IMG/VR virus record: IMGVR_UViG_2695420643_000016
Coordinates: 1 to 7,616 of that record
Source of the DNA: a virus
Lineage: Duplodnaviria; Heunggongvirae; Uroviricota; Caudoviricetes
Length of the DNA: 7,616 nucleotides
Direction: 5' to 3' (one strand)
A program made the position numbers and the translations under genes. The notes under the pieces were generated by a model. The model worked only from the letters and a program-made list of their open reading frames with translations, was not told where the DNA came from and searched no databases. Of the stretch, positions 2,808 to 4,934 are shown in pieces. Each line of letters begins with the position of its first letter. Positions within the stretch are counted from its first letter, which is position 1.

Positions 2808-2959
2808 TTGTAGTTATCTCTCACCTCGCTGATACAGCAGGTGCAAATTGAGGGAACATCATGTACCGCAAATCAGAAGCGGAAACATCAAAGAAGCCGA
2901 ACCGATGGAGAACTGCGGAATAGGCCAGGACCAACGAATCCCCAGCCACAGAAACGACA

Positions 2960-2981
2960 AAACCCGCTCGACGGCGGGTTT
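2960..2981 (-). terminator. tR'-like intrinsic terminator in the late leader upstream of the holin
   Basis: On the minus strand, AAACCCGC-CGUCGA-GCGGGUUU (8-bp stem, 6-nt loop) is followed by UGUCGUUUCUG, a hairpin plus U-rich tract. It lies about 150 nt upstream of the holin start, where lambdoid phages place tR' between pR' and S. Confidence 0.4.
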
Positions 2982-3103
2982 AAGCTGTGTGGCGAAGTAA
3001 CCACTCTTAACAGATTACAATGTTTTTTGCGGAACGCGCTAATGATTTCCTCTTTTTTTTGTTGTATTTTTCACACGGTTGCTAAAATTATTTCGGATCG
3101 ATA
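2982..3103 (-). promoter_or_regulatory. inferred late promoter (pR') and Q-utilisation region, exact elements unresolved
   Basis: Inferred from position between the tR'-like hairpin and the cassette. The only -10-like hexamer on the minus strand is TGTAAT (plus coordinates 3015..3020) with a weak -35. No element could be assigned with confidence. Confidence 0.25.
3059..3088 (+). promoter_or_regulatory. candidate sigma70 promoter for the plus-strand cassette
   Basis: TTGTTG (3059..3064), 18-bp spacer, TAAAAT (3083..3088), about 15 nt upstream of ATG 3104. It is embedded in a T-rich tract that includes a T8 homopolymer at 3053..3060. The leader would be very short and has a weak SD. Confidence 0.25.
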
Positions 3104-4045
3104 ATGAGTACAGAAAATAAGAATAAAACCAGGCGAGTGAGAGTTGGTTTTTTCACTGGTAATGGAAGCAAAAAAGATGGCACATCTGCTGCAAAACTAG
3201 CCTTTGAGCAAATGACCACAGCAGATACTGTAACTTTTCCAATAACTTACACAACAGACACCCCAAATCGAGGGTTAAAGTTAGTTATTCTTCAAAAAGA
3301 TACCACACTGCAATGTTACTTTGGTTACGTATCGTGGAGAAGGGAATGCCTACTACCGTTCATCGAGGATGCTACAGGTAGTGAGAGAACAATTCCTTTA
3401 AATGATAAAGATTCTGTAGTTGAAAGAACATATTTTATCTATTACTACGAAACGGACTTATTAGCTATGACCCTCAACCATATAGGGCCCAAAGTAAATG
3501 ATCTGGCATTCATTTTGTATAACAAAACTGATTTAAAAAGCGTCACTTTTGAAGCCATTTGGAAACAAGAGAGCATGAAGGAACTGCTTGAGGACGGAAA
3601 TATCCTACGTAGTTTCGATCTTATAGTTGCTGCTCCAAGAAACTTTAACAAAGCTAATTATAAGATTAAAAACCCTTTAGCTAATGAAATTATTGACATG
3701 GTTGTTGGTATGGGCGGGTCGCATCTAAGATTAAATATGCGAGGTCGGATTCGCCCGAAAAAACAAGGATTTAACTATCTAAAAACTTCTGTCACCGATG
3801 CTATTAAGGAACTACTTGAACTTTTTCCAAAAGGTTCTGGAGGTCTAAAAATTAAAAAAATTGATGTAACAGAGCCATCCAATAGAACGCCCAAAAGTCT
3901 ACTTGACCAAGTATTGGTCAGTACAAAGACAATCATTGTCAAAAGCGGTTATCCATCCGATTCTGATATCAGAACGGCGATGATATCTGCTAAAATTGAT
4001 AACGCGAACTATCTTGCACAGTATGAGCTCGCTAGCAGAGACTAA
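3104..4045 (+). CDS. hypothetical 313-aa soluble protein, first gene of the AT-rich cassette; candidate sensor component of a RexA/RexB-like two-gene defence module
   Basis: Long ORF on the strand opposite the phage late operon. Hand-counted GC is about 33-37% versus about 58% in a flanking phage gene. No signal peptide or TM segment, and no Walker, HxH, DEAD or PD-(D/E)xK motif that I could recognise. It is followed after 21 nt by a membrane-protein gene. Confidence 0.8.
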   Translation: MSTENKNKTRRVRVGFFTGNGSKKDGTSAAKLAFEQMTTADTVTFPITYTTDTPNRGLKLVILQKDTTLQCYFGYVSWRRECLLPFIEDATGSERTIPLNDKDSVVERTYFIYYYETDLLAMTLNHIGPKVNDLAFILYNKTDLKSVTFEAIWKQESMKELLEDGNILRSFDLIVAAPRNFNKANYKIKNPLANEIIDMVVGMGGSHLRLNMRGRIRPKKQGFNYLKTSVTDAIKELLELFPKGSGGLKIKKIDVTEPSNRTPKSLLDQVLVSTKTIIVKSGYPSDSDIRTAMISAKIDNANYLAQYELASRD

Positions 4046-4066
4046 TAACCAAGCATGGAGGACACA

Positions 4067-4516
4067 ATGAGAGAATTAGCCACTTTTCTCTGGAAATGCG
4101 TCCTCTGGATTCTGTTGACCTATGCAGCGACAAAACTGTTTAAACCGATGAAGCATGCTGACGTACTCACAACAGCGGGGGTGCTCTCGACTATATCAGG
4201 CATCCTGTTTGGTTTTGTTCTGGCTGCAATATCTATATTTAGTAGTGCAAACAGCGATAAGGAAGGAGCAATTAATGCCCTTAAGCAAAACAACGTGTTA
4301 CCAACTCTGGTAAATAGATTACTTTCAACAGGGTTAACTCTCATCGTCGCGTGTATATTTCCATTGATAGCGATGTTTCTACCTGATGATGTTATTGTTG
4401 CGGGCAAACCTATTGATTTCCTGTTCATACTGTTAGGCTTATCCTCCCTTATAATTTCGCTATATACCTTCGGAAGGTGTTGGTTAGTGTTACGAAAAAT
4501 CTTCCCCCACTTGTGA
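4067..4516 (+). CDS. hypothetical 149-aa inner-membrane protein with four predicted TM helices; candidate effector of the cassette
   Basis: Track ORF 4055..4516. The ATG at 4067 is preceded by GGAGG at 5-nt spacing; the ATG at 4055 has no SD and would add MEDT. Four hydrophobic segments of about 20 aa each (FLWKCVLWILLTYAATKLF, VLSTISGILFGFVLAAISIF, LLSTGLTLIVACIFPLIAMFL, IDFLFILLGLSSLIISLYTF). Same AT-rich composition as the upstream gene. Confidence 0.8.
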   Translation: MRELATFLWKCVLWILLTYAATKLFKPMKHADVLTTAGVLSTISGILFGFVLAAISIFSSANSDKEGAINALKQNNVLPTLVNRLLSTGLTLIVACIFPLIAMFLPDDVIVAGKPIDFLFILLGLSSLIISLYTFGRCWLVLRKIFPHL

Positions 4517-4545
4517 CAGGTTGGCCTCATATGGGGCCAACCTGT
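4516..4545. repeat. stem-loop (11-bp perfect stem, 8-nt loop) at the convergent junction between the cassette and the Q gene
   Basis: ACAGGTTGGCC (4516..4526) pairs with GGCCAACCTGT (4535..4545). It begins at the stop codon of the membrane-protein gene and ends 7 nt before the Q stop. No U-tract on either strand. Confidence 0.45.
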
Positions 4546-4551
4546 GCAACC

Positions 4552-4917
4552 CTAAGCGTCCATTTCAAGGTTAACATCCAACATTGAAAGGCAACCATCA
4601 ATAAATCCTTCGGCTAGTTGTATTTCTATGCGTACCAATTTTTCATCCTTTCCACGCACCTTTGCAATCTTACGCTTGGATATTCTGTATAAATAATGTG
4701 CCACAAGCAGCGAGTGCTCATCTGGCTTTTTTTGCTTTAGACGAGCAAGACAACCTTCAATAATTAATGCATCACTATCTGAACAAGCCTGACGTGTTTT
4801 GCTTGTGTAGGGAAGAAGCCCCTTAAACCCAGCAGCTATAGGCGAATAGTCTACTCCAGAACTATCACTCGCCGCCCATGCTCCCCAACGCTCCAGAACC
4901 ATCTGAATATCACGCAT
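4552..4917 (-). CDS. late-gene antiterminator Q, short QuuD-like family
   Basis: Product MRDIQMVLERWGAWAA...AAGFKGL...LEMDA matches my recollection of the DLP12 Q homologue QuuD in its N-terminus and overall pattern. The track start is TTG at 4920; the ATG at 4915..4917 is preceded by GGAG. It sits between the nin-like genes and the lysis cassette. Confidence 0.7.
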   Translation of the reverse strand: MRDIQMVLERWGAWAASDSSGVDYSPIAAGFKGLLPYTSKTRQACSDSDALIIEGCLARLKQKKPDEHSLLVAHYLYRISKRKIAKVRGKDEKLVRIEIQLAEGFIDGCLSMLDVNLEMDA

Positions 4918-4934
4918 CAACTTTCTCCACCAAA

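Follow-up and report, generated by a model that had tools for sequence, protein, structure and literature searches.

The palindromic hairpin at positions 4516–4545 of the window, the whole 7,616-nucleotide stretch of DNA analyzed here, is probably the 3′ transcript-end stem-loop of a two-gene cargo cassette (moron) of low GC content, which is located in a lambdoid prophage, oriented counter to the phage genes, in the slot that separates the antiterminator gene Q from PR′, the late promoter. The role we favor for this hairpin is that of a 3′-end-defining, protective, and pausing stem-loop, with a weak direct terminator as the main rival. The window comprises the late-regulatory and lysis region of the prophage, in which the phage genes are located on the minus strand in the order RusA, a KilA-N protein, a DUF968 protein, Q (PF06530, QuuD type), a lambda-family holin, lysozyme, and Rz. 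Two plus-strand genes, encoding proteins of 313 and 153 amino acids, are found between Q and the holin gene, and the GC content of this cassette is 0.39, compared with 0.52 for the rest of the window. The features on which the analysis is based are as follows:

2955–3046, minus strand: conserved module presumed to be of the late-promoter (PR′)/qut/tR′ type, from an alignment of eight phages, with a canonical terminator hairpin at 2981–2960 (terminator scan).
3047–3103, plus strand: cargo-specific leader and presumed cassette promoter, with a −10-like TAAAAT (3083–3088) and TTGTTG (3059–3064) separated by an 18-nt spacer.
3104–4045, plus strand: cassette gene 1, encoding a 313-aa divergent DUF6731-like protein (phrog_7651, E 5e-146).
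4055–4516, plus strand: cassette gene 2, encoding a 153-aa small membrane protein with three to four hydrophobic segments (Kyte–Doolittle peaks); the last base of its stop codon is also the first of the hairpin.
4516–4545, no strand assigned: palindromic GC-rich hairpin, the probable 3′ stem-loop of the cassette transcript; in minus-strand RNA it forms 6 nt after the Q stop codon.
4552–4920, minus strand: antiterminator Q gene (QuuD type, 122 aa; PF06530, E 7.7e-52), convergent with the cassette.

The module at 2955–3046 (TGCGGAnCGCG...TGTTAAGAGTGGTTACTTCGCCACACAGCTTAAACCCGCCGTCGAGCGGGTTTTG on the minus strand) is highly conserved and is common to phages that differ in their cargos and in their downstream genes. 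We take it, from its location and from what is generally known of lambdoid phages, to be a PR′/qut/tR′ unit, presumably composed of the PR′/qut site, a short leader, and the tR′ terminator for this type of Q. The left edge of the cargo segment is marked by this module because, in phages with an empty site, the module directly follows the Q stop codon. Homology among Q alleles resumes at ...TCCATTTCAAG, 3–8 nt inside the ORF, and the last one or two Q codons vary with the cargo; the right edge of the segment is therefore formed by the Q stop codon and these last codons. The cargo segment extends from approximately 3047 to 4551, between the Q stop codon and PR′, and the hairpin is located at its right end.

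Proteins of the gene 1 type are found in prophages of Escherichia, Citrobacter, Serratia, Yersinia, Salmonella, Xenorhabdus, and others. The gene 1 protein of the window has no match in Pfam, NCBIfam, or PADLOC; it is 45% identical to orf54 of phage cdtI, which matches PF20505 (E 1.7e-10), and PF20505 (DUF6731) is present in many gene 1 homologs. Its AF2 model has a pLDDT of 80 and a pTM of 0.81, and a Foldseek search of the PDB with this model returned no match at E ≤ 1e-3; the best PDB match, RdgC (E 0.009, TM 0.25–0.33), was rejected as noise. A literature search for DUF6731 returned zero papers. Gene 2 is a member of phrog_8552 (E 1.7e-44; annotated as of unknown function), is 50% identical to orf53 of phage cdtI, and is always paired with a DUF6731-like gene, including in phage cdtI. 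Comparison of the gene 2 protein with PADLOC, Pfam, and NCBIfam gave nothing meaningful, with DUF4064 and the MusI family appearing below threshold only. The −10/−35-like pair in the cassette leader is weak and was not called by the promoter scan, which detected no consensus promoter for the cassette.

The hairpin reads ACAGGTTGGCC-TCATATGG-GGCCAACCTGT, with arms at 4516–4526 and 4535–4545 that form a perfect 11-bp stem enclosing an 8-nt loop. In plus-strand RNA, additional U·G and C–G pairs extend the stem to 13 bp, eight of which are G–C pairs, and leave a loop of AUAU. The predicted folding energy of the plus strand in a 50-nt context of the hairpin is −27.3 kcal/mol (z = −5.4), a value equaled by none of 200 dinucleotide shuffles, and that of the minus-strand RNA is −21.5 kcal/mol (z = −2.4). 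The first base of the stem is the A of the TGA stop codon of gene 2 (4514–4516), and the stem ends at 4545, within a 35-nt spacer between gene 2 and the convergent Q gene. These data confirm a previous description of this DNA, made from the sequence alone, as containing a perfect 11-bp stem with an 8-nt loop that starts at the stop codon of the membrane-protein gene; the position ahead of the Q stop codon (minus-strand TAG, 4552–4554) is likewise correct, and the distance given as 7 nt is 6 nt, a matter of counting.

Within the window, the hairpin is the best short-range inverted repeat and the only perfect inverted repeat of at least 11 bp with a loop of 3–10 nt, and a repeat of this kind occurred in only 1 of 200 shuffled windows. 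This rarity, the z score of −5.4, and the recurrence of a hairpin at 18 of 23 diverged junctions (see below) leave a practically negligible probability that the inverted repeat is a functionless chance occurrence. The hairpin is real and non-random. Rfam covariance models gave zero matches across the whole window at E ≤ 1.

The hairpin belongs to the cargo and is not linked to Q. The sequence-only reading had named a hairpin conserved downstream of Q in phages without cargo, with no 3′ ends mapping to it, as the case that would speak against it; in the cargo-free comparison phages, Escherichia phage 1720a-02 and an E. coli prophage (L001 and L002), the Q stop codon runs straight into the PR′–tR′ module and there is no hairpin. 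A 40-mer of the hairpin is present in 73 of 5426 complete E. coli genomes, as one copy in each and always at the end of the cassette; the E. coli strains APEC O78 (NC_020163) and ECONIH6 (CP026199) are examples of lysogens with this prophage. All 17 true copies of the hairpin in IMG/VR are likewise located where the cassette ends, and a further 14 sequences that match the core pattern are unrelated. In the L079 cassette, a hairpin is retained although the convergent neighbor is a DUF6246 gene and not Q.

Given one locus per genome in these 73 genomes, we rejected a dispersed repeat (REP or MITE). The hairpin resembles REP elements in being a GC-rich extragenic palindrome that could stabilize upstream mRNA; in contrast to REP elements, it is present in a single copy per genome and is found only with the cassette. 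Its sequence is not known to resemble the REP consensus.

We compared 82 loci with gene 1 homologs (40–100% amino acid identity) from Enterobacterales prophages, with phage cdtI (orf54 and orf53) among them, which reduce to 23 distinct junctions with a convergent gene 20–51 nt past the gene 2 stop codon; this gene is Q (PF06530) at eight of ten junctions tested and a DUF6246 gene at the other two. Folding of the 48 nt that follow the gene 2 stop codon, with 276 windows from the same loci as controls, reveals a hairpin with z ≤ −3 directly after the stop codon at 18 of the 23 junctions (median z −4.3), whereas such values are found in 2.9% of the control windows (median z 0.03; Mann–Whitney p = 5e-14 for junctions versus controls). 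The intergenic identity among the ten closest variants is 0.55, compared with 0.52 for random 35-mers and with 0.72 (gene 2) and 0.65 (Q) for the adjacent 90 nt.

A MAFFT alignment of the hairpins has a register too poor for formal pair counting, and the comparison is based instead on per-sequence folding with controls and on comparison by hand with three relatives (L027, L028, and L021). The first two have the GGCC core and the AUAU loop in common with the window, whereas the lower stem is CAGGTT/AACCTG in the window and ACATA/TATGT in L027 and L028; both arms have changed and pairing is intact. In L021, the closest diverged relative, the upper eight pairs are kept, the U·G pair is replaced by C–G, and the lower stem has two mismatches (z = −1.9), and the full stem of 11–13 bp is thus not strictly required. 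Distant homologs of the cassette (~43% amino acid identity) are found beside a convergent DUF6246 gene in three IMG/VR loci (L076, L078, and L079), and the cassette is therefore not restricted to the Q–PR′ slot.

The slot between the Q stop codon and the PR′ motif is a cargo hotspot in QuuD-type lambdoid prophages (3047–4551 in the window; L003, L004, and L118–L123), and its cargos are mostly counter-oriented; a DUF6602 protein is encoded in the same slot on the same strand as Q. Unrelated cargos in the slot, which encode an NYN-domain protein, an SDH Clp-fold serine protease, and hypothetical proteins of 339 and 248 aa, each have their own GC-rich stem-loop beside the Q stop codon, and these stem-loops are mostly U-poor. 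The porin gene nmpC, in the DLP12 prophage of E. coli K-12, is likewise counter-oriented, between quuD and essD, and the 189-nt spacer between nmpC and quuD contains several hairpins, one of which is a canonical bidirectional terminator.

The conservation of position while sequence turns over, the retention of a hairpin in L079, and the separate hairpins of unrelated cargos indicate that the hairpin is a structure under selection and not a leftover of insertion. The same observations speak against the suggestion of the sequence-only reading that the hairpin is a scar marking the right boundary of the cassette; the boundary is supported, in that only 6 nt separate the hairpin from the right edge of the variable segment, and the scar is not. 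A DNA-level recombination site or scar, such as a cruciform, an attC-like site, or an end of the IS200/IS605 type, that marks or mediates cassette insertion would fit this location, in a slot that accommodates many alternative cargos; however, a true site would be conserved, and the hairpin sequence is conserved neither across cargos nor among homologous cassettes. In addition, the left edge has no matching hairpin, the cassette encodes no integrase or transposase, many of the variants at this position are plain intrinsic terminators, and the conserved flanks (the 3′ end of Q and the PR′ motif) suffice for swapping of cargos by homologous recombination, all of which make a recombination site very unlikely. 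An integron attC site and an IS200/IS605 end were specifically considered and rejected, as there is no recombinase, left-end partner, or conserved core. The perfect 11-bp dyad symmetry could also be that of an operator for a dimeric DNA-binding protein, an explanation that we regard as extremely improbable given that pairing ability and not sequence is conserved among homologous cassettes, that the palindrome is located at the 3′ ends of both genes and away from any promoter, and that the cassette encodes no regulator.

The hairpin has the GC-rich stem-loop past a gene end that is characteristic of intrinsic terminators and the convergent position of bidirectional intrinsic terminators, but it lacks the U-rich tract (approximately five or more U in 8 nt) of the former and the 5′ A-tract and 3′ U-tract of the latter. 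Each strand has only one U in the 8 nt that follow the stem (GCAACCCU, plus strand; CACAAGUG, minus strand), the flanks CACTTGTG and GCAACCCT include neither an A-tract nor a U-tract, and the terminator scan made no call here for either strand, in agreement with the earlier remark that both strands are devoid of a U-tract. A run of five U on the minus strand, 16–20 nt downstream of the hairpin, is too distant to be a terminator tail. Several homologous cassettes (roughly half) have a canonical A-tract/hairpin/U-tract at the position of the hairpin (e.g., L045, L049, and L069), and phage cdtI has a textbook bidirectional terminator, AAAAAGGGCAgaaaTGCCCTTTTTT, at this position; the window, L021, L023, L024, L038, L039, L075, and L079 are U-poor at the same position. 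The window hairpin is similar to bidirectional intrinsic terminators, as represented by that of cdtI orf53 and by the collision model (10.1101/2022.10.23.513370), in being a single palindromic hairpin in a short convergent spacer, and it occupies the homologous position in a cassette homologous to that of cdtI; it differs from the cdtI terminator in having no A-tract and no U-tract.

We consider it unlikely that the hairpin, which has no U-tract, is nevertheless a non-canonical intrinsic terminator that directly releases RNA polymerase on one strand or on both. Some termination is possible at a long GC-rich stem even where the U-tract is poor, and the stem in the window is very stable (−27.3 kcal/mol) and is located directly past a stop codon; termination is also expected at this position given the canonical intrinsic bidirectional terminators of homologous cassettes. 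Direct release is, however, difficult to reconcile with one U in the 8 nt past the stem on each strand, the absence of an upstream A-tract, the failure of the terminator scan to call the site, and the observation that stem-loops without U-tracts in E. coli mark Rho-dependent and not intrinsic 3′ ends (PMC6061677).

In the favored role of a stem-loop that defines and protects the 3′ end, the hairpin would fold in the nascent cassette mRNA directly past the gene 2 stop codon and, by itself, would probably not release RNA polymerase efficiently, since the U-tract is missing. Rho-dependent termination would occur downstream, in untranslated, C-rich RNA antisense to Q, and the hairpin would most likely fix the mRNA 3′ end and shield it from 3′–5′ exonucleases after the Rho step. 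Collision between polymerases would be an alternative means of release. The hairpin may also be a pause or collision point that keeps transcription of the cassette and of the early operon (Q) out of each other's genes, a role that may apply after induction, once Q is transcribed; as a palindrome, it could cap the Q mRNA likewise. We infer that the Rho and exonuclease route, together with the pausing and collision role, is the most likely mechanism.

This route is modeled on Rho-dependent transcripts of E. coli, which end precisely just past stable stem-loops that have no U-tracts or upstream A-tracts (Dar and Sorek 2018, PMC6061677); these stem-loops are followed by a mild excess of C over G and shield the transcript against PNPase and RNase II. 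The window hairpin resembles these protective stem-loops in being stable, in being located just past a coding region, and in having neither a preceding A-tract nor a following U-rich sequence, and the downstream plus strand has an excess of C over G. The C/G ratio of the plus strand downstream of the hairpin is 1.7–2.1 over 160 nt (at or above the 90th–95th percentile of the window), which is weak evidence for a rut site because it follows from the composition of RNA antisense to Q coding sequence; the downstream minus strand has a ratio of 0.7–1.0 and no C>G bias. The downstream plus-strand RNA would also be untranslated antisense RNA, a natural substrate for Rho. In contrast to the E. coli examples, the window hairpin is located in a 35-nt spacer that also borders a convergent gene. 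With respect to pausing, stem-loops between convergent genes have been proposed, in single-molecule work, to make RNA polymerase pause and to set the position of head-on collisions (Wang et al. 2022, preprint 10.1101/2022.10.23.513370). The suggestion of the sequence-only reading that the hairpin is a bidirectional transcription or RNA-stability element between convergent genes is the best-supported of its proposals.

We also give a slim chance to a more specific hypothesis, in which the U-poor hairpins between cargo and Q are programmed, non-terminating pause and stability elements, and antisense transcription from the induced Q operon silences the cassette as a self-immunity switch. If so, the cargo mRNA would be stabilized in the lysogen, and after induction transcription of the early operon would cross the hairpin and run antisense through the cargo, such that a possibly defensive or toxic cassette would be off during lytic growth of its own prophage. 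Variants with a canonical terminator would need antitermination for the same effect.

A moron is extra DNA of differing GC content with its own promoter and terminator (the Juhala/Hendrix concept; Cumby et al. 2012, PMC3594210), and it is expressed from the repressed prophage. The cassette is extra DNA that is missing from related phages (L001 and L002) and differs in GC content and, like phage morons such as nmpC of DLP12, is low in GC and probably a separate transcription unit on the opposite strand, closed by a stem-loop in the same Q-to-lysis slot. It differs from the moron concept in that its promoter is a candidate only (the weak −10/−35-like pair) and its stem-loop is U-poor; for its part, nmpC differs in its 189-nt spacer with several hairpins, a canonical terminator among them.

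The hairpin is an ordinary element, a U-poor version of the 3′ stem-loop that closes a prophage cargo cassette. In itself it is of minor significance, adding another moron closed by a 3′ stem-loop and another U-less stem-loop of the type found at many mRNA ends in E. coli. In practice, it is useful as a boundary marker that, together with the conserved late-promoter motif, delimits the Q–PR′ cargo slot in QuuD-type lambdoid prophages. The more interesting leads are the cassette, with its DUF6731-like protein and small membrane protein, and the slot, in which this gene pair, the NYN-domain protein, the SDH Clp-fold protease, and nmpC represent diverse counter-oriented genes; both the slot and the two-gene cassette are candidates for a role in lysogenic conversion or in defense against phages.

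Elsewhere in the window, a perfect 22-bp palindrome with no loop, CTTGCCTCACG/CGTGAGGCAAG (1293–1314; site 1289–1318), was called terminator-like on the plus strand and is located between the lysis genes and the genes encoding an HNH endonuclease and the small terminase. This palindrome may terminate transcription past the lysis cassette or may be related to the cos/packaging region.
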